From positions 1,472,001 to 1,536,000 of the forward strand of contig CAVWVI010000003.1 in assembly GCA_963758495.1 (NCBI GenBank): a stretch of 64,000 bases of DNA. The letters run 5' to 3'. The position numbers and the translations under genes are program-made. Below are positions 2,238-20,277 of the stretch, piece after piece; position 1 is the first letter of the stretch, and each line of letters begins with the position of its first letter. A model generated the notes under the pieces. The model saw only the letters and a list, made by a program, of their open reading frames with translations, did no database searches and was not told the DNA's origin. This DNA is from Oligoflexia bacterium (GTDB taxonomy: Bacteria; Bdellovibrionota; UBA1018).

Positions 2238-2285
2238 AGGTTGCAATCTACTTACCTTGACACAAAATTTCAACTTCAGTAACCT
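2238..2285. promoter_or_regulatory. Overlapping divergent sigma70-type promoters (mfd / nuo cluster 1)
   Basis: Plus strand: TTGACA (2257-2262), 17 nt, TAACCT (2280-2285), then GGAG at 2300 before ATG 2306. Minus strand: TTGAAA (2273-2268), 17 nt, TAGATT (2250-2245), 7 nt before the mfd ATG. Confidence 0.65.
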
Positions 2286-2305: not shown

Positions 2306-2734
2306 ATGCTAATCATGAGGAGTTGGGATTCCTATTATATCGTATTTTTGGCTGCAATTCTATCGCTGGGGATTCCGGCTAGCCTAGCTGCGATTTCATA
2401 TGTCTTTTTTAATAAAAATAGAGGCAAAGCCTTCAATCTACCTAAAGTTCAAGGCGCTAAACCTAACCGAACGATTCTAGGCCAAAGAATAAATGTCCGC
2501 TTTTTTTTGGCGGCTAATGCCGCATTGATCTTGATTACATTAGCATTAGAGCTGATACCTTGTGCAATTACCCTTAAATCTGAGAATCGAGAGGGATTAA
2601 TAAAAGGCTTAGTCGCAATAGTGACTCTAGCGGGATTTGCTGTATTAGGGTTACTCTACTCAGTGAGGAAGGGTGATATGGGTTGGTTGAGTTCATTTCA
2701 AATGGAAATTCGAAAAGAAAAGAAGAGCGATTAG
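2306..2734 (+). CDS. nuoA: NuoA-like subunit, divergent (cluster 1)
   Basis: Three hydrophobic segments; RINVRFFL and RKGDMGW align to RISVRFYL and KKGALEW of copy 2; FDVE motif lost. Confidence 0.75.
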   Translation: MLIMRSWDSYYIVFLAAILSLGIPASLAAISYVFFNKNRGKAFNLPKVQGAKPNRTILGQRINVRFFLAANAALILITLALELIPCAITLKSENREGLIKGLVAIVTLAGFAVLGLLYSVRKGDMGWLSSFQMEIRKEKKSD

Positions 2735-2737
2735 TTC

Positions 2738-3211
2738 ATGAAAGGATCCTTTTATTTATCAACCGTGGGTAGGCTTTTGAAATGGGCGAGTTCTCGTTCT
2801 CTTTGGTATTTGTCAACGGGGGGTGGGTGTTGCGCAGATGAGGTATTGAGCGCTATGGGTTGCAGATATGATTTGGAGAGATTCGGATGTCTACCCCAGG
2901 TCGATCCGCGACAAGCAGATTTGCTCATAGTTTGTGGGATGGTTTCCTATAAAGTGGCTCCGCATTTGAAGAGTCTTTATGATGCCATGCTTGCTCCGAA
3001 ATATGTTTTAGCGGTGGGGGCATGTGCGAATTGTGGTGGAGCATTCTCTCCCGAGTTCAGTTATTCGGTCGTTCCAGGTGTAGATCGGGTTATTCCTGTG
3101 GACGTCTATGTGCCCGGCTGTCCGCCTAGACCAGAAGCAATTATGAATGGGTTAATAGCCTTACAGGAAAAAATTTGTGGACAAGAATTCTCTCATCGCG
3201 AAGTTAAATAA
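2738..3211 (+). CDS. nuoB: NuoB-like subunit (cluster 1), N2 ligands intact
   Basis: [43 protein letters not shown]. Confidence 0.92.
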   Translation: MKGSFYLSTVGRLLKWASSRSLWYLSTGGGCCADEVLSAMGCRYDLERFGCLPQVDPRQADLLIVCGMVSYKVAPHLKSLYDAMLAPKYVLAVGACANCGGAFSPEFSYSVVPGVDRVIPVDVYVPGCPPRPEAIMNGLIALQEKICGQEFSHREVK

Positions 3212-3719
3212 AACAGTTCCAGGGGCTATCCTTGAAAGTAGACGTTTTGGGCGCTCTGACCTTTCATCGATTTGGATTGAAGGGCAAGTGATCCAGAAGG
3301 TTGCTTTTGCCTTAAAGTCCTGGGTTGAAGTCAAGATAGACTGGTTGGAGAATTTATCTGTAGTAGAGTTTGATAAAGTATTGGTTATTACCTATTTCGT
3401 TCGTTCAACTTCTACAGGAGATAGTTTAGTGATACGAGCCTCTGCAGTTCCAGAGAGTTCAGAAAGTAGAGTCTTGTTTCCATCCATTCGCTCGATTTGG
3501 CCCATGGGAGAGCCAATGGAGCAAGAGGCTGAAGAAATGTTTGGAATTCAATTTCGATTGAATGAAGAAGATGGGGATTTACGAAAGATGAATCGGCTTC
3601 CTGAGGATTGGGACGGATTTCCATTACGAAAGAGTTATCTGTTTCCTGAAAGTTTTTTGGGAATAACGCATGCACGTACCTTGGATCGAACAAATCCAAA
3701 GAAGTTTTCTTCCTCATGA
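3177..3719 (+). CDS. nuoC: NuoC-like subunit (cluster 1)
   Basis: EQEAEEMFGIQF and LPEDWDGFPLRKSY motifs; position between B and D. Confidence 0.85.
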   Translation: MDKNSLIAKLNKTVPGAILESRRFGRSDLSSIWIEGQVIQKVAFALKSWVEVKIDWLENLSVVEFDKVLVITYFVRSTSTGDSLVIRASAVPESSESRVLFPSIRSIWPMGEPMEQEAEEMFGIQFRLNEEDGDLRKMNRLPEDWDGFPLRKSYLFPESFLGITHARTLDRTNPKKFSSS

Positions 3720-4852
3720 AACAGAACTCGAGGGACGCCCTAAAAACGGATTTAACTACTTGGGAAATTGGCCCCTACCACGGAGCGTTGCCTGCGCCGA
3801 TGAGGTTGCAGTTGAGTTTAGATGGTGAGATTATTGCGTCTTGTAAAGTTGAAACAGGATTTTTGCATAGAGGTTTAGAAAAGGCATGTGAGCTACATAC
3901 TTGGCATTCTACAGTGGCCTATGCAGATCATTTGGATCCGGAGGTTTCATTATTTGGAGAGCTTGCTGTTTGCTTAGCTGTTGAGGAAATCGCGAATATT
4001 GAAGTTCCTAAAAGAGCACAAAATATTCGACTTATTTTATCTGAGCTTACACGAATGTCCGCCCATCTTTATTACATGGTGCGAATGGCCAAATCCGTAG
4101 GTTCTGAAACTATTATTCACTATGTACTGAGAGACCGTGAGAAAATTTTGGATTTGTTTGAGTTACTCACCGGTGCTCGGTTTTCATTAAACTTCCTCCG
4201 TTTCGGAGGCGTGAGTGCCGACGTAACTGATGGTTTTATTGAACGAGTTTTAGAGACGTGCGAAATAATTCGAATTCGCATGAAAGAATATAACGATTTA
4301 TTTACTTTTAATCATATTTTTTTAAAGAGAACCGCTTATGTCGGGACCTTGCCTGCAAACTTGGTTCGTTCCTGTGGCATTACAGGTCCCAATGCTCGAG
4401 CCTCAGGAATTTCAAATGATGTTAGAAAAAGCAATCCTTATATGGGCTATGATCAAATAGAATTTACAATCCCTTTAGGAAGAGGCGAAGAAGGATATCT
4501 GGGTGATGTTCATGATCGATTCATCTTACGGCTGAGAGAGTTAACGCAAAGTATAGAAATTCTTAAACAGTTGGTAAATGCAGTTCCAGGCGGAGCATTT
4601 CTTAATCGAGAATTAGGAAAAGAATATGTGGTCCCAGCAGGCGAAGCTTACTCAAGGATCGAGAGTTCTAGGGGTTTGTTAGGATGCCATGTAGTGTCAG
4701 ATGGAAGAGAGTGTCCGAGTAGAATTCAGTTTCGAACACCTACTGTTGCCGTTCTAATGGCTATTCCAAAGTTAATTACAGGAATTAGGATTGAAGATCT
4801 TCCCGTTGTTTTGGCAAGTTTGGATTTAGGAATTGCAGAGGCAGATCGATGA
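3716..4852 (+). CDS. nuoD: NuoD-like subunit (cluster 1), quinone-site residues altered
   Basis: GFLHRGLEK, ELLTGARF, GPNARASG, GEAYSRIESSRG, C-terminal EADR; no NiFe CxxC motifs. Confidence 0.9.
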   Translation: MKQNSRDALKTDLTTWEIGPYHGALPAPMRLQLSLDGEIIASCKVETGFLHRGLEKACELHTWHSTVAYADHLDPEVSLFGELAVCLAVEEIANIEVPKRAQNIRLILSELTRMSAHLYYMVRMAKSVGSETIIHYVLRDREKILDLFELLTGARFSLNFLRFGGVSADVTDGFIERVLETCEIIRIRMKEYNDLFTFNHIFLKRTAYVGTLPANLVRSCGITGPNARASGISNDVRKSNPYMGYDQIEFTIPLGRGEEGYLGDVHDRFILRLRELTQSIEILKQLVNAVPGGAFLNRELGKEYVVPAGEAYSRIESSRGLLGCHVVSDGRECPSRIQFRTPTVAVLMAIPKLITGIRIEDLPVVLASLDLGIAEADR

Positions 4853-5928
4853 CAAATCCGACGGTTTCCTGGATGGTTGCTTGGTGTGGTCTTTTTGGAA
4901 TTCGTACTGATTTGCCTGAAGCAGTTTATACTTTACTTGCTTTAATTTGCACCTATTGTTTTGTGGTAGTGCCCTCTGGTGGGGTGATGCTTTATTTGGA
5001 GCGTAAATTAAGTGCTGATCTTCAAGCCCGCGTGGGTCCAAAAAGAAGCGGCCCAGTGGGGATGCTACAACCCCTTGTCGATTTATTAAAATTATTACAA
5101 AAGGAAACTCGTGAAGAATGGAGTTGGCAAGAGAATGTCTGGTTGAGTATTTATACCATGGCGCTCTATTCAACGGTTGCAGTCATGCCGTTGGGTTCGT
5201 TAGCTCTTTTAGTAAATACTGAAATGAGTTCATTCATTCCTTTTTGGGCTGCTTTAGTTTTAGCCCTGGGCACGATGTTGTTAGGCTTGAGTCAAGGTTC
5301 GGTTCCTGGATGGTTTGGGGGAATTCGAGTTGCCGCGCAAACTCTTGCAGGATCATTCCCTGCTCTGATTGCATTTATCTGTACAGGTGTTCGCGCTAGT
5401 AGTTTTCGTTGGAGCGTGCTTGCAGAATCGCAAAGATTTGCCCCTTGGCACTGGACTCTTTTTTCTAATCCCTTTCAGACTTTGGCGTTTATTATTTTTG
5501 TGTTGAGTGGACTCGTATTGTTAGCGGTACCTCCTTTGGATGGAGGTCTTTCGATGTCTGATATTCATGGAGGAGTTTCATCTCATCTTTATGGGAGGCG
5601 ACTCAGCTTATTCAGGTTTGGAAGATTTTATGGTTTTTTCTTTTGGTCAGTGATCACCGTTGTTTTATTTCTAGGGGCATGGGCTTTACCTTTTGGCCTT
5701 TCAGAATGGCTGAAAAGAAATGAATTATTTGCCCCATTAGGGTTTTTAGAATTGATTTGGTTATTATTGAAGACGTTTGCTCTCATGCTCCTTGTGATTT
5801 GGATTGCACGAGTGAACTCTAGAAGTCGAGTCGATCAGATTACAGATTTTTCCTGGAAGGTTTTGAGTCCATTTTCTCTAGTCGCTCTAATAGGTGCAAG
5901 TTTATGGGCAGGATGGAGGGCTTTTTAA
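4849..5928 (+). CDS. nuoH: NuoH-like subunit, divergent (cluster 1)
   Basis: ERKLSADLQARVGP...QPLVDLLKLLQKE and RVDQITDFSWK. Confidence 0.88.
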   Translation: MTNPTVSWMVAWCGLFGIRTDLPEAVYTLLALICTYCFVVVPSGGVMLYLERKLSADLQARVGPKRSGPVGMLQPLVDLLKLLQKETREEWSWQENVWLSIYTMALYSTVAVMPLGSLALLVNTEMSSFIPFWAALVLALGTMLLGLSQGSVPGWFGGIRVAAQTLAGSFPALIAFICTGVRASSFRWSVLAESQRFAPWHWTLFSNPFQTLAFIIFVLSGLVLLAVPPLDGGLSMSDIHGGVSSHLYGRRLSLFRFGRFYGFFFWSVITVVLFLGAWALPFGLSEWLKRNELFAPLGFLELIWLLLKTFALMLLVIWIARVNSRSRVDQITDFSWKVLSPFSLVALIGASLWAGWRAF

Positions 5929-6461
5929 TGAAAACTTCCATTTTTTCAATCATAAGAGCCTATGTCCGAAATGTTTGTTTAGGAGCATGGTCAATTGCAG
6001 GGTCTTGTATGACTGCATTTCCTTATATATTTAGATGGGGTGATCTTCGTAAAGAGGTAACAGAAGGTTATCCAGATCCTGTTTCCTCTAAAACGGCGGA
6101 TGATTTGCCTCAACGAAGTCGTGGCTTATTATTCAATGACATTGATCGGTGCACCGGTTGCAAGGCATGTGAAACCATTTGTCCGGCTCAATGCATTCGG
6201 GTGGAAGAAGAACCTGGAGCCGATACCTCTAAAACTTGGGTTTCTACTTTTGATATTGATTTTTCAAGGTGTATTTTTTGTGGACTTTGTGTAGAGACGT
6301 GCCAACCTGGATCTTTAATTCATACTCGCCAGTACGAAGGAGCAGCTTATAATCTAACGGATTTAGTGGCAAATTTTGGAAGAGGCCAAGTGACTCCTGA
6401 GCAACGAGAGAAGTGGGCTGCTTTAAGGCAACTCAGTGAGAACGATGAGGCAACTTTATGA
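5928..6461 (+). CDS. nuoI: NuoI-like 2x[4Fe-4S] subunit (cluster 1)
   Basis: CTGCKACETICP and CIFCGLCVETCQ; ATG overlaps the nuoH stop (TAATG). Confidence 0.9.
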   Translation: MKTSIFSIIRAYVRNVCLGAWSIAGSCMTAFPYIFRWGDLRKEVTEGYPDPVSSKTADDLPQRSRGLLFNDIDRCTGCKACETICPAQCIRVEEEPGADTSKTWVSTFDIDFSRCIFCGLCVETCQPGSLIHTRQYEGAAYNLTDLVANFGRGQVTPEQREKWAALRQLSENDEATL

Positions 6462-6952
6462 TGGAGTGGATTTTCGCAGGAATGACTATCTTTGCTGTCG
6501 TTTTGGCTACGTTTGCGAGACACACTCGCCATGCCATTCTAGCTCTTTGGGTGGCAGGACTCGGTGTGGGCGGGATGTATTTAATTTTAGGAGCAGAATT
6601 TCTAGCTATTATTCAGTGGATTGTCTCTACACTAGTGACGATTGCATTTATCTTTTTTTCCGTAATGTTTGGCGAGTATAATTCACCTGCCCCACGGGCT
6701 ATCGGTAATGGCTTATTGCTCACGCTCTTGTCAGTGGTCATCGGAGTTGGTTTTACGGTGGTCATTTGGTTAGGTGTTAAAGAATTACCCACAAGCTCCT
6801 TCATAGTAGAATCGGGTAGTAATGACTTGGAGCTCATGGGTCAAATGTTAACGCAAGAAAATTTACTTTCTTTAGAGGTTTTAGCACTGACTCTCTTCTT
6901 AGTTTTAGTAGGAGGAGGCGTAATCGCACGATTAGAAGGGAGTAATGAATGA
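6458..6952 (+). CDS. nuoJ: NuoJ-like subunit, divergent (cluster 1)
   Basis: Five hydrophobic segments, LGAEFLAIIQ, LSLEVLALTL; operon position. Confidence 0.82.
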   Translation: MMEWIFAGMTIFAVVLATFARHTRHAILALWVAGLGVGGMYLILGAEFLAIIQWIVSTLVTIAFIFFSVMFGEYNSPAPRAIGNGLLLTLLSVVIGVGFTVVIWLGVKELPTSSFIVESGSNDLELMGQMLTQENLLSLEVLALTLFLVLVGGGVIARLEGSNE

Positions 6953-7239
6953 TGATGCTAGTGGCCGGCCTAATCGGTGGATTAGGTTTAGTATGCATGA
7001 TTTCTCGTAAAAGCTTATTAGGTCTTCTTATCGGAGTTCAGCTTCTTATTTTGGGATCTACAATGATGTTCGTCATAGCTGGAATATTTTCGGGCTTACG
7101 AATTCAAGGTCATATTTTTGGTTTATTTATTACGCTTGGGGGAATAGCACAGTTAGTAGTGGGATACTCACTTGCCATCCGGTTATTTTTCTTAAAAAAG
7201 GGGATATCCATGAATAAAGTACAGGCGCTCAAACAATGA
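6949..7239 (+). CDS. nuoK: NuoK-like subunit, divergent (cluster 1)
   Basis: 96 aa, three hydrophobic segments, SRKSLLGLLIGVQL; operon position. Confidence 0.8.
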   Translation: MMMLVAGLIGGLGLVCMISRKSLLGLLIGVQLLILGSTMMFVIAGIFSGLRIQGHIFGLFITLGGIAQLVVGYSLAIRLFFLKKGISMNKVQALKQ

Positions 7240-9179
7240 CGATCCTTGAAAGTTCACCTACTCTTCTTACTATTTGTATTCTTTTCCTACTTTTTTTTGG
7301 GATCGTGATTATTTGTCTAGGAAAGGATCTCCCTGGCAAAGGAAGTTGGCTGGTTTGGGGTGGGATACTAGCAATTATCGCTTGTGTCGGCTTTGATTCC
7401 GGATTTTTTTTAAAACAAGCATTTAAAACTAAAATTTGGTCAGTGGGCTGGATTGGATTTCGGGGCGACACGGGTGCAATCACTGTGGGTATATTCGAAG
7501 ATCCAGTCGCTCTTGCAATGACTACTTTGGCGGCTCTTGTAACTTCGGGACTACTTTTGAATCATGGGGTGCTGTTACGGGAGTCTCGACCCGAGAGGAT
7601 TTATGCTGCGCTTGCAATTTCCACTTCAGGAGTTGCGCTCGCATGGAATTCACTCACTCCCTGGCTGATGTTCTCAGGGTTGAGTTTAACTCTTCTGGGT
7701 GGATTCGTTGCAATTGGATCAAGATGGGAAGTGAATTCAGAAGCACACTTAGGGATAAAGTTTATATTGGAACGGTCAGCAGGATTCTTGCTAGCTTTTT
7801 TTGGTACTTGTATTCTTGCTGCAAATCGTTCAGCGTTAACTTTAAACCAACCTCAAGTGTGGGAGGCTACTGCTGATCATTTGGGGTCAACATGGATTGG
7901 TTCTATTCTGCTTGTGGCGGGTTTATTTATACAAATGCAACCCTTTCCCTTCACGAGTGGGACAGCTACAAATTCACAAATCTATCCTCCGATTAAGGTC
8001 TTATTAAATCAGATATTCCCTGCTTGGGCGGTTTTTCCTTTATTGCTTCGATTGGAGCCTTTTTTTGTCAATCTAGGACTTTTTCCTCATTTTGGATGGA
8101 TCGCTCTAGGCTCCTCTATCCTGATTATTTTTTCAGGTCTTTTTCAAAATAAGTGGAGACAAACACTTGGAGCCTGGCTGGCCGCCGGTTTATCACTCTC
8201 TTGTGCCTTTCTTGCATTTGCGGGTCCTCTTGCAGCAATGGCATTGTTGTTAGGGGTGAGCTTAGGCGCTCTTTGTTTATCTGCTGCAGGGAGTGGGTTG
8301 GAAGATGAATGTCCTCAGAGCCATGGAAATAAAAAGCGTGCAGCTTGGGTTAAGGTAGGCGCATTTTTAGGGGCAGCGGCTGGGACTGGTGTGGTCGGTT
8401 TTATATCGGCGACAGGAGCAGTCCGGTGGATTGTCCAATCCATTAATTTTCCTGGTGTGATGACCTTTTTTCTTTTGGTATTTTTTCTATATGTATTGCT
8501 GAGTTGGAAATTAACTTGGAGCATTAATAAATTACGTAAATTTTCAAAAGTCTCGTGGTTGTCAATACTTTCTCTTTTTTTATGGGTATTACTCTCTTTA
8601 GGAGTAATTTGGACAGGATCTGTTACCGGAAGTGTTTTTCCCGGTGATTCTGATCGATTCCTAGGTTCTTTTTTTGATGAGTTCTTTGTGACAAAGTCAG
8701 TTGAACTTACCCCGTCTAGCGATTTTCTACTGGCCTCCAGTTTGTATTGGGGGACGTGGTTATTTGCTTTTGTTGCAGCTTATTGGACTGCGGGTAGAAA
8801 GGAAGATGTATGGGCCACTCTCGGTAAAGCGATCCCAAAAACAAGTAAATTTATCTCACAAGGCTATGGAATAACCGGGGCCATGCGCAGAGTACTTATT
8901 GGAGTTAAATGGGCTGGAGAGTGCGCAGAAGGTCTAATTGATCGAAGAATTTGGAATAATTGGATTCCTCGGGGATTATTTACGGGGATAAAAATTATTT
9001 CTGAACGAGTGAGTCAGATGGATGTTAGGTTATCTTTTGTATTAGGTAATGTCTTAAGAAAATCCGTCGAGATTCCTGCTAAAATTCTTCAATTGGTCCA
9101 AACAGGAGATCTGCAGTGGTATTTAGTTTTTGCTTTGGGTTCAGGGTTCGCGTTGTTGTCTCATTTTATAAAACTATAA
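7236..9179 (+). CDS. nuoL: NuoL-like antiporter-family subunit, highly divergent (cluster 1)
   Basis: 647 aa polytopic membrane protein; C-terminal QLVQTGDLQWY matches RLIQTGSIQIY of copy 2; operon position. Confidence 0.8.
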   Translation: MTILESSPTLLTICILFLLFFGIVIICLGKDLPGKGSWLVWGGILAIIACVGFDSGFFLKQAFKTKIWSVGWIGFRGDTGAITVGIFEDPVALAMTTLAALVTSGLLLNHGVLLRESRPERIYAALAISTSGVALAWNSLTPWLMFSGLSLTLLGGFVAIGSRWEVNSEAHLGIKFILERSAGFLLAFFGTCILAANRSALTLNQPQVWEATADHLGSTWIGSILLVAGLFIQMQPFPFTSGTATNSQIYPPIKVLLNQIFPAWAVFPLLLRLEPFFVNLGLFPHFGWIALGSSILIIFSGLFQNKWRQTLGAWLAAGLSLSCAFLAFAGPLAAMALLLGVSLGALCLSAAGSGLEDECPQSHGNKKRAAWVKVGAFLGAAAGTGVVGFISATGAVRWIVQSINFPGVMTFFLLVFFLYVLLSWKLTWSINKLRKFSKVSWLSILSLFLWVLLSLGVIWTGSVTGSVFPGDSDRFLGSFFDEFFVTKSVELTPSSDFLLASSLYWGTWLFAFVAAYWTAGRKEDVWATLGKAIPKTSKFISQGYGITGAMRRVLIGVKWAGECAEGLIDRRIWNNWIPRGLFTGIKIISERVSQMDVRLSFVLGNVLRKSVEIPAKILQLVQTGDLQWYLVFALGSGFALLSHFIKL

Positions 9180-9188
9180 GGGAATGAT

Positions 9189-10688
9189 GTGAGTAATCAT
9201 TTAATCAGTTTGATGGTATTTTTCCCAACACTGGGTGCAATTCTACAGGCATTTTTACCTCCTACTCGAAGTCGGTGGGCTGCGCTAGGTGCGAGTATTG
9301 TTGCAAGCATATTTGCGATTTTTCTAGTTGCTTCATTGCAGACGCAGACTGCGGATTTGCAAGCTACTGAGTTTTTGGGTTGGGTAGGTTCCTATGCCAT
9401 TAGTTATGAAATGGGAATTGACGGACTCAATGTTTTGCTCGTTTTACTCATCGCAATTCTTTTTCCCGTTCTCATTGCTTGCGAGTGGAATCAAAAGACA
9501 GGTGCACGAGGTATGCATGGTCTTTTTTTAATTTTACAGACGTCGTTATTTGGAGCAGTTTGTGCGCAAGACTTATTCTTACAGTTTTTCTTTTGGGGTT
9601 TAAGCGCTTTACCTTTTTACTTTCTTGTCGGGATTTGGGGAGGAGAGGGTCGAGAAAGTGCTTCATTTAGATCGATGGTGACGGCCTCATTGGGCGATGC
9701 ATTCATTTTTGCAGCCCTGATTCTTGTTTATTATTCAGTTGATCCTCACAGCTTTTCTTTAAGAGAATTAGCGGGAGGAAGACTTGTAGGGAAGACATTT
9801 GATTTACTCGGCTATGAGCTTCCTGTTTCGGGGGTGTCTTTTGTCTTAATGAGCATGGGTTTATCTTTGCGAGCACCTGTCTGGCCTTTTCATGGTTGGT
9901 TTACAGAGGTTGCGCAAGAAGCACCTTCTTCAGTTTTTGTTGCCCTTTGTGCCGGGACTGTTCCAGTAGCAATGTATATCTTTGTGAAAGACTGTTATCT
10001 CTTATTTCCTGAAACTTTAGGTTATACGGGTAAGATTATAGTGATCGTGGGCGCCATTAATCTGATTATGGGTGGTATTTGCGCAGTTTCTCAAAAAGGC
10101 CTCCGTAAATTGCTTGCGTTTATTTGCATTGGCGAAGTGGGTTTGGTTTTAATGGGCATGGGTTCACTGAGTCCGCTAGGTGTTGTAGGGGCAATTTACC
10201 AACAGTTAATTTTAGGTTTAGGATTAGCTGGGTTTGGACTTTTTTCTGGTATTCTAGCTCATAGGACAGGCCATTCTGATTTTTTAAGTGAAGACAATGA
10301 GCGCATTTTTGGTGGTATTGCAACTCAGGCTCCTGCAATGGCCGTCATAGCGGGGATTGTGGTTGCATCGTTACTGGGTTTTCCCGGTTTAGGTGGATTT
10401 GTAGGGCATGCATTAGTCATCATTGGAACTTATTCGATTCATCCTATGGCAGTTGTAGTATCCGGCTTTGCACTCCTGCTTGCATCCTATTATTTATTTA
10501 CAATGTATCGTTGTATATTCTTGGGTAACTCTGGTGTAAATTCACATTCTTTTGAAGACTTAACTTATAGAGAACGTGCCTATATGTTGCCAGTTGTATT
10601 TGGACTTTTGTTTTTCGGGCTTTATCCAAAGCCTTTGCTTGAATGGATTAGACCTACTGTGCTGACTTTGCTGTCGACGATCAAATGA
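9189..10688 (+). CDS. nuoM: NuoM-like antiporter-family subunit, divergent (cluster 1)
   Basis: ISYEMGIDGL, YFLVGIWGG, PVWPFHGW, LGFPGLGGFVG, FFGLYP. Confidence 0.88.
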   Translation: MSNHLISLMVFFPTLGAILQAFLPPTRSRWAALGASIVASIFAIFLVASLQTQTADLQATEFLGWVGSYAISYEMGIDGLNVLLVLLIAILFPVLIACEWNQKTGARGMHGLFLILQTSLFGAVCAQDLFLQFFFWGLSALPFYFLVGIWGGEGRESASFRSMVTASLGDAFIFAALILVYYSVDPHSFSLRELAGGRLVGKTFDLLGYELPVSGVSFVLMSMGLSLRAPVWPFHGWFTEVAQEAPSSVFVALCAGTVPVAMYIFVKDCYLLFPETLGYTGKIIVIVGAINLIMGGICAVSQKGLRKLLAFICIGEVGLVLMGMGSLSPLGVVGAIYQQLILGLGLAGFGLFSGILAHRTGHSDFLSEDNERIFGGIATQAPAMAVIAGIVVASLLGFPGLGGFVGHALVIIGTYSIHPMAVVVSGFALLLASYYLFTMYRCIFLGNSGVNSHSFEDLTYRERAYMLPVVFGLLFFGLYPKPLLEWIRPTVLTLLSTIK

Positions 10689-10721
10689 TCGTTTAAGCTT
10701 GAGAAAAGAGGAGGAAGGCCT

Positions 10722-12191
10722 TTGAAAGAGTTTTTTTTGATTATGCCCGAAATCTTTCTGGCCTTAACTTTAGCTTTTGTAATTATAGGAGAAATCACCT
10801 ATTTTGGTGAACAAATCCGACTCATCACTGCCACTTCCCTTCTGGGTTTAGCAGGCGCTTTTGTTCAGACTATTATTTCGTATGAATATGGAGCAGCACA
10901 AGTATTTGGAGGAACTCTTTCTGTAGATGGGTTTTCTTTATTTTTTAAATTACTTTTTATTACGCTAGCGATGCTTTCTATTTTCTCAGTTTCGCAATCT
11001 CAGGAAATTGCTGCAAGTAGAAGAACTGAGTATTGCGCTTTGATTCTAGCCTCGGCTTTGGCGATGTGTTTGGTCGCCTCTGCTGCCGATCTGACACTGA
11101 TCTTTTTGTCGCTCTTATTTTTGAATGTGATCGGGTATTTTCTTGCCGCATATGGGTGGCGCTCTCTATTGTCCACCGAGGCAGCTGTAAAATATTTGGC
11201 TTTTGGGGCGGTCGCCACCGCGTTGTTGCTTTATTCTCTAGCCATTCTTTTTGCATTCACTCATACATTGAATATTTACCAAATGCATAAAGCCCTCGAG
11301 CTGGCGCCCTTATCCTACAATGTCATGTTGGTTCTGTTTACTTTGTGTTTTTTGGCTTTTAGTTTTCAAATAGGCGCGTTTCCTATGTATCTCTTAGTTC
11401 CTGATATACTAGAAGGTGCACCTACGCCGGTCTCTGCGTTTTTATCTTTTGGGGCTCGAGCCGCGGGGTTTGCAGCTGCAATTCGATTCCTTATTGTGGT
11501 TTTTGCCAAGCCTGGGACTGCTCCTGGGCAATGGGAAGTACTCGGGCAATTTGATTGGACTCAAATTGTTTCATTCGTCTCAGGCATGACTATGTTGGTG
11601 GGAGCATTGCTCGCCTTTCTTCAAAAGGGGGCAAAGCGTCTGGTAGGCTATCTCGTCGTAGCTGAAACAGGCTTTTTGTTGATGGGCTTGCTTGTTCTAG
11701 ATCAAGTTGGAATTGCAGCTTTACTTTATAATTTAGTGATAGAGCTTTTTGCTTTAATGGGGAGCTTTTATCTTTTATCTTTTATTTTTGACGAGCTCAA
11801 ATCAGACCGCCTTGAAGACTTAAAAGGAATGTTGAAACGAGCTGTACCTGAGTGCGTTTGTTTAGTTATATTCCTCCTCTGTCTAGTAGGAAGCCCACCT
11901 ATGCCGGGATTTATTGGAAAATTTGCATTGATAGGTGTTGCTATTCGGCACCATCGGATTGTTTTGGCAATGATCGGTATAGTTTCAATGGTTATTTCTA
12001 CCGGAGCAGTGATCCGACTGGCGTTTAACTTAGTTGGAAACTTCCAGGAATCTACGGGCCCAGTCATGACTGCAAGTTTTTCAAGAAAAGCTTACTTAAC
12101 TATTCTAGTCGTTCCCATGGTTCTTGTCGGAATCTTTGCTGATTTCGTATTTAGATGGGCCGGGCAATCACTTGGCTTTATTTTCTGGTAG
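10722..12191 (+). CDS. nuoN: NuoN-like antiporter-family subunit, divergent (cluster 1)
   Basis: STEAAVKY, PDILEGAPTPVSAFLS, GSPPMPGFIGKF. Confidence 0.88.
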   Translation: MKEFFLIMPEIFLALTLAFVIIGEITYFGEQIRLITATSLLGLAGAFVQTIISYEYGAAQVFGGTLSVDGFSLFFKLLFITLAMLSIFSVSQSQEIAASRRTEYCALILASALAMCLVASAADLTLIFLSLLFLNVIGYFLAAYGWRSLLSTEAAVKYLAFGAVATALLLYSLAILFAFTHTLNIYQMHKALELAPLSYNVMLVLFTLCFLAFSFQIGAFPMYLLVPDILEGAPTPVSAFLSFGARAAGFAAAIRFLIVVFAKPGTAPGQWEVLGQFDWTQIVSFVSGMTMLVGALLAFLQKGAKRLVGYLVVAETGFLLMGLLVLDQVGIAALLYNLVIELFALMGSFYLLSFIFDELKSDRLEDLKGMLKRAVPECVCLVIFLLCLVGSPPMPGFIGKFALIGVAIRHHRIVLAMIGIVSMVISTGAVIRLAFNLVGNFQESTGPVMTASFSRKAYLTILVVPMVLVGIFADFVFRWAGQSLGFIFW

Positions 12192-12224: not shown

Positions 12225-12584
12225 ATGAGCTATATCCCTGTCTTAATTCTCATGTTGGTGGGACTGACCATTGGTGGAGCTATTCTTGTGCTTTCTACGT
12301 TATTGGGAAAGGGAATTCCTAATAAAAGAAAGAATATGGCATTTGAATGTGGTGTTCCTTCGTTTGGTTCCGCACGCCACAGAATCTCTGTCCGGTTTTA
12401 TTTGGTTGCGATTCTTTTTCTTTTATTTGATGTCGAGGGGATTTTCTTTTACCCTTGGGCAGTCGTTTATAAAAAATATCTCACTATTAATTCCTTTATT
12501 TTCATTGAGATGGCGTTTTTTGCTGCGATTTTATTAGTGGGATATCTTTACGTTTTGAAAAAAGGCGCTCTTGAATGGGAGTGA
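12225..12584 (+). CDS. nuoA: NADH-quinone oxidoreductase subunit A (cluster 2, canonical)
   Basis: FECG loop, FYLVAILFLLFDVE, KKGALEWE. Confidence 0.95.
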   Translation: MSYIPVLILMLVGLTIGGAILVLSTLLGKGIPNKRKNMAFECGVPSFGSARHRISVRFYLVAILFLLFDVEGIFFYPWAVVYKKYLTINSFIFIEMAFFAAILLVGYLYVLKKGALEWE

Positions 12585-12629
12585 CTTTTGCCGATAGTCG
12601 TCGGAGCAGTTTCTTGAAAGGTAAGTATT

Positions 12630-13254
12630 ATGGGTAAAGATGGATCAGTAGGATTTTTAACTACACGCTTGGATGCGTTTGTAAATTGGGGTCGTAAGAA
12701 TGCTCTCTGGCCCCTTCCCTTTGGGACGAGCTGCTGTGGAATTGAGATGATGGCTACACTTTGTTCAGATTACGATATGTCCCGATTTGGAGCTGAAGTA
12801 GTCGGTTTTCTCCTAGGCAGAGTGATTTACTCATTGTTGCCGGGATCATTAATCTAAAGATGGCGCCTGTATTGAAGACGCGTCTATGACCAAATGAGCG
12901 ATCCAAAGTTTGTGATGTCGTTTGGCGCTTGTGCTTCTTCGGGTGGCATTTTCAATGTTTATAGTGTGCTTACAAGGGATTGATACTATGATTCCTGTAG
13001 ATGTGTATGTACCCGGATGTCCTCCGGCTCCAGAAGGAGTTATTCACGCTCTGATGAGGCTTCAAGATATGGTAGCCAAAGGTGAAACTCATTCGCAGAG
13101 GCAGCTTGCTCAGCGTAAAAAACGGTGCAAACGCTTAAGGTTTGAAATCGAAAAAGAGGTAATGAGAATGGATATTAGACACCCATTCCAACGAATGGCG
13201 GCGATTGGTTACAAAGTTTGGAGATATTATGGAAAAAACAAACCGCCAAATTAA
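12630..13254 (+). CDS. nuoB: NADH-quinone oxidoreductase subunit B (cluster 2); about 3 frameshifts, ends uncertain
   Basis: [10 protein letters not shown], then shifted frames give [39 protein letters not shown]; indels near 12802, 12878 and 12970. Confidence 0.88.
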
Positions 13255-13730
13255 AGAAAAATTTGGGGCAGCGATCGAAGAAATTCGGATGCCCGACGAA
13301 TATCCAACAGATGTGCCAATTATTTATGTGAAAAAAGAGTCAATTGTGAGGTATTAAGGGTTTTAAAAGAAGAAGCGGAATTTGAGTATGGGTTCCTTTC
13401 TGATATTACAGCGACCGATGAAGAAATTGAGCCGCGCTTTGAGGTTGTTTACAATCTCTTTTCTCATCTTCATCGAGCTAGAATTCGGATAAAAGTGCGA
13501 GTACCCGAAGGTGAAGAAGTTCCTACCGTTACTCCTGTTTGGAAAGGTGCGGACTGGGCAGAGCGAGAAGTTTACGACATGTTTGGTGTTAAGTTTACTG
13601 GTCACCCCGATCTTCGCAGAATCCTCATGGATTCTCGTTGGGTAGGACATCCGTTGCGTAAGGATTACCCTTTAAGAGGATACCAAATCTTTACAGATGC
13701 AGAACCCATTGATCCAACCTTTTGGAGTGA
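13229..13730 (+). CDS. nuoC: NADH-quinone oxidoreductase subunit C (cluster 2); frameshifted
   Basis: GGAG + ATG 13229; after an indel near 13346, [38 protein letters not shown]; probable stop TGA 13728-13730 if one T is missing from the T-run near 13722. Confidence 0.85.
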
Positions 13731-13740
13731 GAAGGAATCC

Positions 13741-14992
13741 ATGATTGAAAGAATTGAAGCTCAGCCAAAGAAATTTGATTTGCCCGATAGCTATCAGGTC
13801 GAGCATGATCCAGACGATCTATGGGGCGATTCACGTTTTATAGTGAATATTGGCCCGACTCACCCTGCGATGCACGGCGCATTAAGAATGGTAGCGAAGC
13901 TCAATGGAGAAACTATCGAAAAATCTTACTGTGAATTTGGTTTTACCCATCGGGCTAAAGAGAAGTTGGGTGAAAATCGAACTTTTCACAATTTCATCGT
14001 TTATACTGATCGACTTAATTATTGCTCAGCTCTTCTGAATAATGTGGTTTACGCCATGTCAGTTGAGCGATTGATGGGCGTAGAAGTTCCTGATCGTTGT
14101 ATTTGGATTCGGATGATTTGTTGTGAGCTAGCACGAGTCATTGATCATCTGATCTGTATTGGAATTAATGCAGTTGACCTAGGGGCTTTTTCCTTCTTTC
14201 TTTATGGATTTCATCAAAGAGAAGAAGCGTATACTTTGATTGAAAAGCTGTGCGGAGCTCGTCTGACAACCTCTTATACTCGTATTGGGGGGTTGATGGC
14301 GGATGCTCCTGAGGGCTTTGAAAAAGAGCTGAAAGTCTGGATTACCAAAACCAGAAAAGTAATCGATGAGATGGATGAGCTTCTGACCAATAATAAGATT
14401 TGGCGTAAGCGAACGGTAGGTGTGTCGGTATTTAATAAGGAAAATTGTCTTCAGTTATAGCTATTCAGGTCCGAATGCGCGGGCAGCGGGGATTGATTTG
14501 GATCTTCGCAGGGACCAACCTTGCATGTTCTATAAGGATGTCGAGTTTGATGTTCCTGTGACTCAAAATGGGGATGTTTATGATCGATATATGATTCGGT
14601 TGGCAGAGATTAGACAATCCTTAAATATTTTAAGTCAATGCGCTGATCGCATTAAAAAGGGCCCTATTTGGTCAGAAGATAAAAGAGTTCGAATTCCAGA
14701 TAAAGACGTTGTTCATAATACAATGGAAGGAATGATTCATCATTTTAAATTCTTTATGACTGGTTTTGAAGTTCCTGAAGGTGAAGCCTATACTCAGTTT
14801 GAAGCTGCTAATGGGGAGTTGGGATTTTACATTGTGAGTAAAGGTTCGCCTCGTGCCCATCGGATGAGGATTCGGGGACCGTCGGTTTGGCATTATCAAG
14901 GTCTTTCGACGATGGTTCAAGGAGAGAAGATCGCAGATATGGTTGCCGGGCTTGGAAGTATCAATGTAATTGCCGGTGAGCTCGATCGCTAA
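13741..14992 (+). CDS. nuoD: NADH-quinone oxidoreductase subunit D (cluster 2); one frameshift near 14451
   Basis: AAGGA + ATG 13741; [36 protein letters not shown]. Confidence 0.92.
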
Positions 14993-15001
14993 AAAGAGGC
15001 T

Positions 15002-15487
15002 ATGTTAAAGATGGAAACCAAAATTCTTTCGAAAAAATTCTATGACCAGATGGCAAAATTGGAGCCACGCTATCCAACAAAAGTAGCGCTTCTTTTGCCC
15101 GCTCTCCATGCGGCTCAAGATGAATTCGGCTGGCTTCCGCCAGAGGTGATGGATGAAGTCGCTCGTTATATTGGAATTCACCCGGCGCAAGTTCGAGAAG
15201 TCGCTAGTTTTTATACAATGTATAATTTAAAAAGTGTGGGTAAATATCACTTAAAATTTTGTACAAATGTTGCCTGCTGCCTCAGAGGTTCTGATGAACT
15301 TTTGGAGCATTGCGAGAAAAAATTCGGAATTAAATGTGGTGAAACTACCAAAGATAAGAAATTCACACTGATGGAAGAAGAATGTTTGGGCGCTTGTGGT
15401 ACGGCGCCTGCGATGATGCTCAATAATGACTATCATGAAAAACTAAACATTCAGACCCTTGATCAGCTGCTAAATAGCTTGGAGTAA
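15002..15487 (+). CDS. nuoE: NADH-quinone oxidoreductase subunit E
   Basis: EVASFYTMY, CTNVAC, ECLGACGTAP. Confidence 0.95.
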   Translation: MLKMETKILSKKFYDQMAKLEPRYPTKVALLLPALHAAQDEFGWLPPEVMDEVARYIGIHPAQVREVASFYTMYNLKSVGKYHLKFCTNVACCLRGSDELLEHCEKKFGIKCGETTKDKKFTLMEEECLGACGTAPAMMLNNDYHEKLNIQTLDQLLNSLE

Positions 15488-15490
15488 TTT

Positions 15491-16769
15491 ATGGTGGATG
15501 ATTTTGATACTCTTTATATCCAGCATTTCAATGAGGAAGCACGCCCTCTTAATTATTATTTGAAGAGCATGGCGGGTTATACGGCCTCTAAAAAAGCTCT
15601 GGGTATGCCTCAAGACGAAATCATTGCAGAAGTGAAGAAATCCAATTTGCGAGGCCGAGGAGGCGCTGGGTTTCCAACGGGGATGAAGTGGGGATTCATT
15701 CCAAAGCAATCGAGTAAGCCAAAGTATTTGGTTTGCAATGCAGATGAATCGGAACCGGGTACTTTTAAAGATCGTGATATTATGAGGTACACCCCTCACC
15801 TTTTAATTGAGGGGATGATTATTGGTGCCCATGCTATTGGCGCAAATGTGGGCTATATTTATATTCGTGGTGAATATACTCGCGAAGCAAAACTTTTAGA
15901 TCAAGCTATTGATGAAGCCTATCTGAATGGGTATTTAGGTAAGAATATTCAAGGCTCAGGGTTTCACTTTGATCTCACCGTGCATCGTGGGGCGGGTGCT
16001 TATATTTGTGGTGAAGAAACTGGCATTATTGAACTCACTCGAAGGAAAGCGAGGAGAGCCTCGCGTGAAGCCACCTTTTCCTGCGCAGGCAGGAGCATTT
16101 GGTGGACCCACGATCGTGAATAATGTGGAAACTTTAGCAGCAATCCCATTTATTATGAATCGCGGAGGCGAGTGGTTTTCAAAATTAGGTAAGCTCGAAA
16201 AATCAGGTGGAACTCGCCTTTTTTGTGTCTCTGGACATGTGAAAAAGCCGGGCGTTTATGAATTGCCTGCAGGAAGTGTCACTCTGAGGCAACTGATTTA
16301 TGATTACTGTCATGGAATCTTAGATGATAAAAAACTTAAAGCGGTGATTCCTGGAGGATCTTCGGCTCCTGTCCTGACAGCGGATGAGATTGACGTCATA
16401 GTAGACATTGAACCGCTGATGAAGATCGGAACCATGTTGGGTTCAGCCGGAATTATGGTTGTAAGTGAAGACTATTGTGTCGTTAAACTCATTAAAAGAA
16501 TCACCAAGTTTTATGCTCATGAGTCCTGTGGGCAATGCACGCCCTGTCGAGAAGGCTGTAGATGGATGGAAGATATATTAGAGAGAATTGAACACGGCAA
16601 AGGGCGCGAGCAAGATTTGGCTCTGCTTTTGGAGATTGCAGATAATATTAATGGCAAAACTCTTTGTGCATTGGGAGATGCGGCAGCAGGTCCAGTAACA
16701 AGCTTTGTTAAGAAATTTCGAGCAGATTTTGAAGCTCATATTCGAGGTGGAAAATGCCCAAATGCGTGA
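15491..16769 (+). CDS. nuoF: NADH-quinone oxidoreductase subunit F; one frameshift near 16022
   Basis: [55 protein letters not shown]. Confidence 0.94.
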
Positions 16770-18175
16770 TTGATGGACGTGAAGTAGAGTTTACGCCAGG
16801 ACAAAATATCATTGAGGTCGCAAAGAAGGCTGGAGTATCCATTCCTTACTTTTGTTATCACCCAGGGCTTTCTGTAGTTGCTCAGTGTCGGATGTGCGCG
16901 GTTGAAGTGGAGAAAATGCCTAAGCTTCAGACAGCATGTTCCACTGTAGCCACCGAAGGAATGGTGATTAAAACGACCTCTCCTCGGTCTCTCCAAAATC
17001 AAAAATCAACCATGGAATTCTTACTCATTAATCATCCCTTGGATTGTCCTATCTGCGATAAGTCCGGGGAATGTGATCTCCAAGATTTCTCATTTCAGTA
17101 TGGTGATTCTTATTCCCGTTATACTGAAGAGCGACGCACTTACATGGACTTAGATATGGGTCCGGTAATTAAAAAGAATATGAATCGCTGTATTCATTGT
17201 ACACGATGTATTCGGTTTGGTGAAGAAGTTGCTGGTATTCATGAAATGGTGGCTGTGAAGCGAGGTAACAATACTGAGATTACCACCATAGATGGTAGGG
17301 CATTGGAAACAGATTACGCAGGTAATTATGCAGATATTTGTCCAACCGGTTCTTTAACTTTAAATGATTTCAGATTTAAAAAGCGAGTTTGGTATCTTAA
17401 AAAGACGCCCACAGTGTGTGAGGGCTGCTCCAAGGGCTGTAATATGGATATTCATCAGGATGCCGACCTGATTCACCGCTGTACTCCACGTGAAAATATG
17501 GAGATTAATAAATATTGGATGTGTGATGAAGGACGGATGAACTTTCATTACGTGAATAATAAAGAGCGCGTGATCGAACCTTCTGTTGGAAAAGAGTTAA
17601 ATTTAAGTGCTTCAGATTGGGGAGCTTCAATTGACTTTGTGAAGCATGCCGTTGCAGGAAAAAAAGTCACCGTATTAGTGGGATCCGATCTGACTCAAGA
17701 AGAGGGAGCTCTTTTGCTTCAGTTCCTGCCAAAGCATCTGCCTCATTCTTCAATGTATCATTTTGGAACTCCGGGGGTTGTTTTCGCTGAGGATGATGCT
17801 GCAGCAGATAAGATATTAAAAAGAAAAAGCAAGACCTCCAATCTTCATGGTTTTGAAAAACTAGGCATTAAAGGTTTTGAAAAAATGCCAACAGATACAG
17901 ATGTCGTCTTGGTGATTCGGGGCGGGCGTGCTGTAGTCCCTGATCTCAATGGTCTTAAAGCAATTGGATTAGGTGTATTTATGAGGTCAGATGTGGAGCG
18001 CTTTTTAGCGATTTTACCTGGAACCTCATTTGCTGAAAAAGACGGAACGGTTTTGAATTACGAAGGACGCGAGCAGAAAATCCGACGGGCTATTCTCCCA
18101 CCTGGAGCGTGTAAACCGCTATCCGAAATTTTAATGATGTGGGCAAATCGCAAGACTTCGTCTGGAGCAGCTTAA
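16754..18175 (+). CDS. nuoG: NADH-quinone oxidoreductase subunit G, short form (473 aa)
   Basis: FCYHP, CRMC, HPLDCPICDKSGECDLQ, RCIHCTRCIRF, CEGCSKGC...WMCDEGR. Confidence 0.92.
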   Translation: MPKCVIDGREVEFTPGQNIIEVAKKAGVSIPYFCYHPGLSVVAQCRMCAVEVEKMPKLQTACSTVATEGMVIKTTSPRSLQNQKSTMEFLLINHPLDCPICDKSGECDLQDFSFQYGDSYSRYTEERRTYMDLDMGPVIKKNMNRCIHCTRCIRFGEEVAGIHEMVAVKRGNNTEITTIDGRALETDYAGNYADICPTGSLTLNDFRFKKRVWYLKKTPTVCEGCSKGCNMDIHQDADLIHRCTPRENMEINKYWMCDEGRMNFHYVNNKERVIEPSVGKELNLSASDWGASIDFVKHAVAGKKVTVLVGSDLTQEEGALLLQFLPKHLPHSSMYHFGTPGVVFAEDDAAADKILKRKSKTSNLHGFEKLGIKGFEKMPTDTDVVLVIRGGRAVVPDLNGLKAIGLGVFMRSDVERFLAILPGTSFAEKDGTVLNYEGREQKIRRAILPPGACKPLSEILMMWANRKTSSGAA

Positions 18176-18178
18176 CCT

Positions 18179-19294
18179 ATGGATACTTTTAGCTGGATTG
18201 CATTAGGAGCGAAAGCTGGGTTTTTGGTATTAGTTCTTCTTCAAGTTGTGCCGATTATGGCTTGGGTAGAGCGTCGAGGTTCTGCGCTTTTGCAAAACCG
18301 TCTAGGTCCCAACCGGGTAGGGCCGTTAGGAATCATTCAATCTCTTGCAGATGCAATTAAATTTATTTGGAAGGAAGATCCAGTCCCCGGTCATGTTACG
18401 CCCTTTTATTATATTATTGCGCCGCTGGTTTCTCTCATCCCCGCTTTTATGACCTTTGCGGTGATCCCATTCGCAAGTTCTATTACGATAGAGGGTCGTG
18501 TTGTAAATTTTCAAGTGGCGGAACTGAATGTTGGATTATTATACGTATTTTCGATCGCCTCCCTGGGTGTTTACGGAATTATCATGGCGGGTTGGGCATC
18601 CAATAGTAAGTACACGATGTTGGGAAGTCTTCGCAGTGCCTCGCAAATGATTAGTTATGAATTATCAATGGGACTCTCTGTAGTGGGTCTTATCATGGCG
18701 TTCTCGAGTATCAAATTGGGAGATATCGTTCGACAGCAAGGTGAACTTCTGACTTCCTTAGGGCCCATTCCGATTTCATCTGCATTGCAAATTCCTAAAT
18801 GGGGAATTTTTATTCAGCCGCTTGGGTTTTTAATTTTTCTGGTTTCTGTATTTGCTGAAACCAACCGATTGCCCTTTGACTTGCCTGAAGGTGAATCGGA
18901 AATTGTGGCAGGATATCATCTTGAGTACGGCTCAATGAAATTCGCCATGTTCATGATGGCGGAATACATCAATATGATGACCGCTTCAGGTCTTCTCGCT
19001 ACCTTGTTTTTTGGGGGTTGGCAGCTGCTTCCTGGAATGGGCTTGATGCTTCATGGGGTTCAGGGGTTTTTTCAACAAACAGAGATGGCAGCAGAGTGGA
19101 CCCGAGTTATTTTTGAAATGATTTCATTCTGGCTTAAAGTCGGCTTTTTCATGTGGTTCTTTGTTTGGGTACGTTGGACCTTGCCTCGCTTCAGGTATGA
19201 TCAGCTGATGGATTTGGGATGGAAAGTGATGCTTCCACTTGCTTTGGCTAATGTGGTGGGCACAGGTATTTTTGTTTATTATGGGTGGATTTAA
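18179..19294 (+). CDS. nuoH: NADH-quinone oxidoreductase subunit H
   Basis: QNRLGPNRVGP, QMISYE, AETNRLPFDLPEGESEIVAGY, PRFRYDQLM. Confidence 0.96.
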   Translation: MDTFSWIALGAKAGFLVLVLLQVVPIMAWVERRGSALLQNRLGPNRVGPLGIIQSLADAIKFIWKEDPVPGHVTPFYYIIAPLVSLIPAFMTFAVIPFASSITIEGRVVNFQVAELNVGLLYVFSIASLGVYGIIMAGWASNSKYTMLGSLRSASQMISYELSMGLSVVGLIMAFSSIKLGDIVRQQGELLTSLGPIPISSALQIPKWGIFIQPLGFLIFLVSVFAETNRLPFDLPEGESEIVAGYHLEYGSMKFAMFMMAEYINMMTASGLLATLFFGGWQLLPGMGLMLHGVQGFFQQTEMAAEWTRVIFEMISFWLKVGFFMWFFVWVRWTLPRFRYDQLMDLGWKVMLPLALANVVGTGIFVYYGWI

Positions 19295-19297
19295 TTT

Positions 19298-19741
19298 ATG
19301 CTATTGAAAAAGAAAAAAGGGGTTTTGCAGGAGCTTTACCTTTTAGAGATTATAAAAGGGCTCTGGATTACAATTAAAAACTTTTTCTTTGCGCCTAAGG
19401 TAACGATTCAATTCCCAGAAGAGCGTAGAGTTTATTCGGAGCGGTTTCGGGGTGCTCATTATATCAAAGCGACCAATGGCGTAGAGAATTGTACCGCTTG
19501 TATGCTTTGTCCTACGGTTTGCCCTGCCGAATGTATTCATATTGAAGCTGGGGAGCGACCTGATAAGGAAAAATACCCTGTGAAATTTGAAATAGATTTA
19601 CTCCGGTGTTGCTTTTGCGGGATGTGCGAAGAGGCTTGTCCAAAGGATGCAATTAAATTGAGTACCATTTATGAAATGAGCACCACTACTCGTGAAGTTT
19701 ATGACAAAGAATTTTTACTCGAACAAAGGGGTGGTAAATAA
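19298..19741 (+). CDS. nuoI: NADH-quinone oxidoreductase subunit I
   Basis: CTACMLCPTVCP and CCFCGMCEEACP. Confidence 0.95.
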   Translation: MLLKKKKGVLQELYLLEIIKGLWITIKNFFFAPKVTIQFPEERRVYSERFRGAHYIKATNGVENCTACMLCPTVCPAECIHIEAGERPDKEKYPVKFEIDLLRCCFCGMCEEACPKDAIKLSTIYEMSTTTREVYDKEFLLEQRGGK

Positions 19742-20277
19742 TGGATATATCCCCGGTCTTTTTTTATGGGTTTGCTGGACTTGCTCTAGCTTGTTCTATG
19801 CTTGTGATCTTGAAAAAGAATCCTGTTTCGAGTGCATTTAGTTTAGTGATGGTATTCTTCGCATTTGCGGGAATTTATGCAATGCTGGACGCCCATTTGA
19901 TTGCTGCATTACAGATCTTTGTTTATGCAGGTGCGATCATGGTTCTTTTTATTTTCGTGATTATGTTGCTCAATGCTGATGTTCCTTCTTTCGACCTTGG
20001 CAGGTCACATATTTTAGTTCGCCTCTTATCCGGATTCCTGTGTGCGGCATTATTGGGAGTCTTTATTTGGGCTTTTAAAGAGAGTCATATGGGTGCTCCT
20101 ATCGGAGAGTTCACTCCAGAAAATATTGAAGCGGCAGGTGGCAATTCGCAAGTGATCTCCGAGCTGATGTTCTCCGAATATATCTTGCCGTTTGAGCTGA
20201 CGTCGGTACTTTTGTTGGCGGCAATAGTTGGGGCAGTTGCTATTGCCAAGAGAAAACTCTCCAGTGTGAGGTCTTAG
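19741..20277 (+). CDS. nuoJ: NADH-quinone oxidoreductase subunit J
   Basis: QIFVYAGAIMVLF, LPFELTSVLLL. Confidence 0.95.
   Translation: MDISPVFFYGFAGLALACSMLVILKKNPVSSAFSLVMVFFAFAGIYAMLDAHLIAALQIFVYAGAIMVLFIFVIMLLNADVPSFDLGRSHILVRLLSGFLCAALLGVFIWAFKESHMGAPIGEFTPENIEAAGGNSQVISELMFSEYILPFELTSVLLLAAIVGAVAIAKRKLSSVRS

Follow-up and report, generated by a model that had tools for sequence, protein, structure and literature searches.

In a window of 64,000 nucleotides (nt) from the genome of an Oligoflexia bacterium (Bdellovibrionota), a canonical 14-gene nuo operon for respiratory complex I (positions 12225..25669, plus strand) is preceded by 11 further complex I genes, nuoA, B, C, D, H, I, J, K, L, M, and N (2306-12191, plus strand), which we call the twin operon and whose nuoN ends 33 nt before the canonical operon starts. 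The twin is real, conserved, and surprising: all 11 open reading frames (ORFs) are intact and free of internal stops, only 6 of 38 key membrane residues of complex I are retained, and the quinone site is altered as well. Judged from its sequence, this central machine of energy metabolism has apparently been retained for a different task. An earlier reading of this DNA (the original prediction) had described 11 full-length, frameshift-free, and mostly translationally coupled genes. These points were confirmed: seven of the ten gene junctions overlap, and the remaining gaps measure 3, 9, and 33 nt.

Loss of the membrane charged axis

The membrane subunits were aligned to E. coli K-12 and scored at 38 residues regarded as key ones for complex I. 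This list is partly confirmed by PMC9271201, PMC13073174, and PMC10212512. Among operons with all seven membrane subunits, the 39 canonical ones retained 36-38 of the 38 residues and the 37 degenerate ones, counterparts of the twin, retained 3-16, with six or fewer left in 32 of the 37.

Motif alignments were made with MAFFT together with E. coli and 33 canonical relatives. In the NuoA-like protein (2306..2734; PF00507, E value 1.7e-4; an alternative start at Met 2315 is possible) D79 is replaced by I and E81 by L, and neither residue was retained in any of 38 twin sequences. The NuoH-like protein (4849..5928; PF00146) carries S for E157 and R for E241 and has lost most of the acidic loop between transmembrane helices 5 and 6; E157 was retained in 0 of 45 sequences and E241R found in 33 of 45. 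Y59 of the NuoJ-like protein (6458..6952; PF00499) is replaced by S and was likewise absent from all 45 sequences. Both glutamates of the NuoK-like protein (6949..7239; PF00420) are exchanged, E36 and E72 each for Q, and among 46 sequences E36Q occurred in 36, E72Q in 29, and Glu in none. The NuoL-like protein (7236..9179) has kept the long lateral helix and lost every axis residue, each of which was retained in at most 2 of 46 sequences. In the NuoM-like protein (9189..10688; TIGR01972, above cut-off) we found E144G, K234R, K265P, H322E, and E407H; E144 persisted in 1 of 47 sequences, and K265P was present in 37 of 47. The NuoN-like protein (10722..12191) showed E133L, K217Q, K247R, and H305E, position 133 being Q in 31 of 47 twin sequences.

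The motif losses listed by the original prediction were borne out by these alignments, 11 of 13 tested pairs falling into identical MAFFT columns and the NuoN pairs corresponding to E133/L132 and K217/Q216 when checked against E. coli. The NuoL pairs at HAFFK and FSKD had been misplaced by one and three columns; whichever register is used, the charged residues are missing. The claimed near-total loss of the axis stands with the qualification that the removal is not total. In NuoM, K234R occurred in 46 of 47 sequences and H241, which is present in this twin, in 38 of 47; in NuoN, position 395, K in this twin, was K in 34 and R in 8 of 47 sequences, and K247R was found in 29 of 47; in NuoH, K274 was kept in 45 of 45 sequences, this twin included, and D213 in 29 of 45. 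For E. coli NuoN, E133A was reported as harmless, K217A as mild, and K247A and K395A as severe, K247 and K395 being described as essential (PMC13073174), so that the NuoN losses alone would not prove a disarmed complex. The losses in NuoA, H, J, K, L, and M carry most of that case.

Outside NuoL, the 22 near-invariant axis columns were retained in 4% of derived sequences, compared with off-axis near-invariant retention of 57% (D/E/K/H), 73% (R), 76% (G/P), and 38% (all other residues); in this count seven basal rows were excluded, and the columns are not independent of each other. The selectivity vanished on pooling with NuoL (D/E/K/H 0.28 versus aliphatic 0.26), because NuoL is relaxed throughout its length.

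The fold appears to have outlived the axis. Ten of the 11 twin proteins matched complex I families of Pfam or NCBIfam, mostly under the curated NCBIfam cut-offs. As a single sequence the twin NuoL had no match in Pfam, NCBIfam, or the PDB, but a profile of 44 twin NuoL sequences matched NdhF/NuoL with an E value of 1.5e-27. Its structural model (pLDDT 91) contains a helix at residues 546-622, and the top Foldseek match was E. coli NuoL with a TM score of 0.71. The NuoN model (pLDDT 92.6) matched NdhB with a Z score of 51.5 and a root mean square deviation (rmsd) of 2.0 over 472 residues, and comparisons with NdhB and NuoN structures gave Z scores of 49-51 at an rmsd of ~2 Å.

The loss extends to the most divergent members of the class. 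In the other order (L118, L120, L122, L124, and L126) the operon holds four antiporter-like genes, L, M', M, and N, with no axis retained, and the extra NuoM-like gene matched the degenerate M profile at 97%. Family f10 has a shrunken ten-gene operon in which L and M are reduced in size and no axis is retained; a profile comparison was positive for its H (96%), N (85%), and M (84-90%) and negative for A, J, K, and L. Weak NuoM matches had suggested that both operons are missing from f10; this was wrong, as f10 carries both.

Taken over the seven membrane subunits, these losses make it very probable that the twin pumps no protons. The original prediction had also proposed a channel for a different ion, and another ion or solute could in principle be moved, by a channel or carrier, along a polar path remodelled within these proteins, namely NuoM and NuoN. 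Such a path would draw on replacements conserved in the main family, namely R234, H241, E/Q322, and H/Q407 in NuoM, R247, E/Q305, and K395 in NuoN, and Q36 and Q72 in NuoK. However, these are not common to the other order or to f10, and NuoL, proposed as the sole periplasmic exit (PMC10212512), is the most eroded subunit. As no polar path is common to the whole class, the channel proposal is weak and we regard it as very unlikely.

Quinone site and iron-sulfur ligands

The twin NuoD (3716..4852) is of a short type that lacks the segment corresponding to E. coli residues 494-517. In the numbering of the 596-residue E. coli form (add 4 for the 600-residue form), H224 is replaced by P26, Y273 by P75, and D325 by S127. 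Across 43 twin sequences, H224 was never retained (Pro in 32), Y273 was retained in 5, all basal members (Pro in 30), D325 in none, and H220 in 27. Among the best 120 database homologues of the twin NuoD, the His was Pro in 113, the Tyr was Pro in 118, and the Asp was found in none.

The site need not be dead merely because these residues are gone, since Fpo also lacks H38 and D139 and the Sulfolobus NuoD lacks H38, Y87, and D139 (PMC4758237). An uncoupled quinone reductase, which would pass electrons on without generating proton motive force, can be pictured along these lines: the iron-sulfur chain and NuoH residues K274, D63, and R37 persist, and the basal members still have the NuoD Tyr. 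It is difficult to reconcile with the prolines in nearly all homologues, with the report that the substrate protons come from the His228-Asp329 pair (PMC10212512), and with the finding that E. coli axis mutants lose electron transfer too (PMC13073174). We consider such an enzyme quite unlikely, and the twin probably reduces no quinone. The non-electrogenic redox conduit of the original prediction is thus weakened in its plain quinone reductase form.

The ligands of the iron-sulfur clusters had a different fate. The four N2 cysteines are present in the twin NuoB (2738..3211; TIGR01957, above cut-off) and in 47 of 49 NuoB sequences, and both CxxCxxCxxxC ferredoxin motifs are found in the twin NuoI (5904..6461) and in 54 of 55 NuoI sequences; the cysteines were retained even in the most eroded family, and NuoB and NuoI rank with the best conserved twin subunits. 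NuoI has in addition gained invariant class-specific motifs, an insert beginning PDPVSS and an FGRG..W tail, which are absent from the canonical and from the intact sister copies. In genome G149, NuoB has lost two N2 cysteines. The NuoC-like protein (3177..3719; PF00329) had no match in the twin operons of L044, L046, and L066 or in family f10.

These observations bear on a further explanation, a membrane-anchored redox sensor or conduit, in which a soluble donor, presumably ferredoxin-like as presumed for the 11-subunit ancestor, would reduce N6a, N6b, and N2, and the output would go to a non-quinone acceptor or a regulator. The retained cysteines, the strong conservation of NuoB and NuoI, and the new invariant surface motifs of NuoI would all be expected of it, and MBS, a membrane-bound reductase of sulfane sulfur, was reported to use an iron-sulfur cluster directly on a non-quinone substrate (PMC7684303). 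Yet the clusters may serve folding only, the N2 ligands of G149 are incomplete, and it would be left unexplained why the L, M, and N genes, 5 kb in all, and the extra M are retained. Moreover, the twin operon has no gene for an electron donor or acceptor. NuoE, NuoF, and NuoG were not found among its 11 genes, and the single NuoF of this genome (G000) belongs to the neighbouring operon. We regard a sensor or conduit as unlikely, though less so than a quinone reductase, and as the strongest competitor of the reading favoured below.

Conservation, origin, and a possible structural role

With a profile of the degenerate NuoI, matches were obtained in 115 of the 127 genomes available for this class of Bdellovibrionota and in 72 of 75 near-complete ones, nearly always once per genome. 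NuoF was present in 79 of 79 class genomes, so that a working partner is always at hand. The tandem arrangement was read on single contigs in 33 genomes selected for having both matches on one contig, in five of the other order, and in family f10. The twin subunits stood in conserved order in most complete loci, and the gap to the canonical nuoA was 6-80 nt in 32 of 33 loci. Twin ORFs were intact across both orders, with a split NuoD in L036 and a split NuoL in L070 as exceptions.

Ratios of nonsynonymous to synonymous substitution (dN/dS) were determined for same-genus pairs by the Nei-Gojobori method; in 4 of the 10 degenerate pair sets dS was saturated and no ratio is given. Apart from the saturated pairs, the main family yielded 0.07, 0.09, 0.10, 0.20, and 0.23, and in the operon of family f10 nine genes yielded 0.02-0.07 and the tenth showed no amino acid change. 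Between-genus values were mostly saturated. Intact ORFs and ratios of 0.02-0.23, well below 1, are not those of pseudogenes. The view of the original prediction that the fold is under selection and pumping is not agrees with these ratios, with the confident complex I folds of NuoL and NuoN, and with the selective loss of the axis.

The twin evolves ~1.4-3 times faster than the canonical operon. Together with its progressive erosion and with lineages that lack one of the arms, this could be expected of a slowly decaying relic, kept merely for lying between the promoter and the working operon. Such a relic is largely refuted by the selection on amino acids evident from dN/dS of 0.02-0.23 at often saturated synonymous sites, and it fits poorly with intact ORFs in two orders and presence in nearly all near-complete genomes; we consider it extremely unlikely.

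The comparison with other Bdellovibrionota classes revealed where the twin comes from. There, two membrane arms stand in tandem and a separate BCDI cluster encodes a short NuoD. The upstream arm was intact, with 38 of 38 residues, in all seven genomes read, and the NuoD of the intact short-type relatives keeps H/H/R/Y/D. In a tree of H, M, and N (mixture model, 26 rows) the degenerate clade grouped with this intact upstream type with an SH-aLRT support of 99, and a FastTree phylogeny of NuoD grouped the degenerate and the intact short type with support of 1.00. Of the 24-residue NuoD segment, 0-4 residues were present in 44 degenerate sequences, 0 in 10 intact short-type sequences, and 24 in all 34 canonical ones. 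A clade of the twin and the neighbouring canonical copy was rejected by the approximately unbiased (AU) test with a p-AU of 1.8e-99, in a data set with long branches from which the f10 and other-order rows were excluded. By the tree and this test, the idea that the twin is a recent duplicate of its neighbour is rejected; what the original prediction called a paralog descends from a separate 11-subunit complex that is intact in other classes. In two 99%-complete genomes a short NuoD was the sole strong NuoD match and NuoF was not found, which fits a true ancestor without the N-module. The erosion was stepwise, since 9-16 axis residues and the NuoD Tyr are still found in basal members.

Three further loci concern the history of the two types. 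L103 (G048:C110) holds a third, intact-looking 11-gene operon with a short NuoD, sister to the upstream type and possibly acquired separately. The downstream-type arms of L109 and L112 (G162 and G130) lie on long branches and carry early substitutions (J Y59N, N K247I, N H305S).

These data show that two complex I types, unrelated to each other, stood in tandem in ancestral Bdellovibrionota, an 11-subunit type without NuoEFG upstream and a 14-subunit type downstream. In this class the upstream type has lost the proton-transfer axis and the quinone-site residues, with all its subunits, its fold, and its iron-sulfur ligands kept under purifying selection. We read the outcome as a pseudo-complex I. 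The twin would share a transcript with the working enzyme and assemble into a complex I-shaped particle; the working complex I may have come to depend on it, and the iron-sulfur clusters may be kept mainly to fold NuoB and NuoI. We tentatively favour the reading that the twin is kept as a non-catalytic structural partner of the working complex I, either in a hetero-oligomer or as an assembly scaffold. Structural partnership would explain the retention of whole arms, the tolerance to changes in arm length, the shared operon, and an apparent reciprocal case. The selective loss of catalytic residues, with G/P and R positions kept, would also support it, and the entrenchment of heteromers that arise from homomers has experimental precedent (PMC10888846).

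The apparent reciprocal case occurs in another class (family f22; G252, G214, and G231), where an intact upstream arm (38/38) is followed by seven hydrophobic ORFs in the size order A-H-J-K-L-M-N (L145:9528-14490, also in L148 and L147). They are a possible reciprocal ghost arm, the homology being drawn from position, size, and hydrophobicity, and their dN/dS was 0.11-0.41 in the single measured pair. This case suggests that each of the two partners can be retained after its catalysis is lost. Also in G252, at L151 (G252:C3, ~574300), a 509-amino-acid (aa) ORF with faint similarity to NuoC and NuoD lies between ORFs of 458 and 498 aa; these are possibly eroded soluble subunits.

Several observations weigh against a structural partner. 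In one genus, NuoM, NuoN, and NuoH change no faster than their canonical counterparts. The new NuoI motifs would be as compatible with a new active role as with a structural one. At the site, the downstream-type arm stands alone in G143 and G076 and the upstream arm alone in G128, so that neither type needs its partner in general. The seven f22 ORFs gave no significant match to complex I subunit profiles, all staying below 5%. We judge the evidence evenly balanced on the broader proposition that the entire complex is a pseudo-enzyme, either an obligate non-catalytic partner or a redox-sensing regulator, which arose twice in Bdellovibrionota in opposite directions, from the upstream copy here and from the downstream copy in the other class.

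Promoter, neighbouring genes, and relation to known complexes

The twin operon is preceded by a putative sigma-70-like promoter on the plus strand (2257..2285), with TTGACA at 2257-2262, a 17-nt spacer, and TAACCT at 2280-2285. This sequence, named in the original prediction, is real, but "consensus" overstated its -10 element, which matches at 3 of 6 positions; for the same reason it was missing from the list of a promoter scan. The pattern was found upstream of the operon in 23 of 36 relatives compared with 16 of 902 control windows, and only before the first twin gene. The scan revealed a divergent promoter-like site on the minus strand (2273-2245) that overlaps the nuoA promoter and may account for the conserved spacer. 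A long gene on the minus strand (1-2285) runs divergently from nuoA and, judging by its motifs, presumably resembles mfd; in G054, G143, and G076, too, this neighbour lies ahead of the operon.

The canonical operon of this genome shows one frameshift each in nuoB, nuoD, nuoF, and nuoN, within 12588-25669. These are most likely assembly errors, because essential genes of the same assembly contain 13 frame switches in 25.4 kb (~1 per 2 kb) and 33 relatives carry the operon in intact form. A first proxy outside nuo had given 0 frame switches in 40 kb. The 13 switches led us to reject the idea that the operon is a pseudogene here, and they make gene breaks in this genome unreliable; that the twin shows no frame switch in 9.9 kb is somewhat lucky at such an error rate. 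The canonical NuoG (16754-18175) is short, with 473 aa compared with 908 in E. coli, and measures 455-508 aa in all 33 relatives. Directly 3' of the canonical nuoN, ORF 25705-28743 encodes a 1,012-aa protein rich in tetratricopeptide repeats with one hydrophobic segment; its N-terminus, without a Pfam match, is putatively GYF-like. The ORF is present at this place in G001, G041, and G054 and absent there in G233 and G143, and similar ORFs close the operon in family f22.

Among known systems, the twin is closest in layout to the 11-subunit complex NUO11 (PMC3144371, PMC4758237), with the same 11 genes in the same order and without NuoEFG. It shares with NUO11 the N2, N6a, and N6b ligands and differs in the charged axis and the quinone site; its sisters, the intact short-NuoD complexes of other Bdellovibrionota, keep 38/38 residues. 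With the 14-subunit complexes of E. coli (Nuo) and T. thermophilus (Nqo) it shares homology of all 11 subunits, the solved folds matched by the NuoL and NuoN models, and the N2/N6a/N6b ligands, but it lacks the N-module, the central axis, and NuoD segment 494-517, and its quinone site is altered. Unlike group 4 NiFe hydrogenases, including the membrane-bound hydrogenase MBH, the twin NuoD lacks the two cysteine pairs and has HLDP and LDLGIAEADR at those sites. MbsL of MBS aligned with the twin NuoD in one unbroken stretch, and the complex I-like architecture is common to both. A Pfam/NCBIfam search found no genes of the Na+ module of MBS and Mrp among the twin genes, and the axis is lost, which complex I, MBH, and MBS are all reported to have retained (PMC8165549). 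The absence of two quinone-site residues is shared with Fpo (PMC4758237).

A nuoAHJKLMN cluster was described in Bdellovibrionota, also with two divergent nuo clusters in one genome (PMC13147790); the consulted passages of that paper mention neither a loss of catalytic residues nor such an 11-gene operon. PMC4453560 lists genomes with two isozymes, and its consulted passages never name Bdellovibrio or Bacteriovorax. Our literature search, whose coverage left out most subscription journals, found no account of a disarmed complex I.

Automatic annotation labels the twin proteins as subunits of an active NADH-quinone oxidoreductase, which calls for caution. A full 11-subunit complex without axis or quinone site is a near-universal single-copy feature of this bacterial class and suggests that the complex I scaffold has a role other than catalysis. 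The graded natural series of 38, 16, 14, 11, 9, 6, and 3 of 38 residues could serve to separate structural from mechanistic positions. If our interpretation is true, the twin would represent the evolution of a whole machine into a pseudo-enzyme and a natural "all-axis knockout" of complex I.

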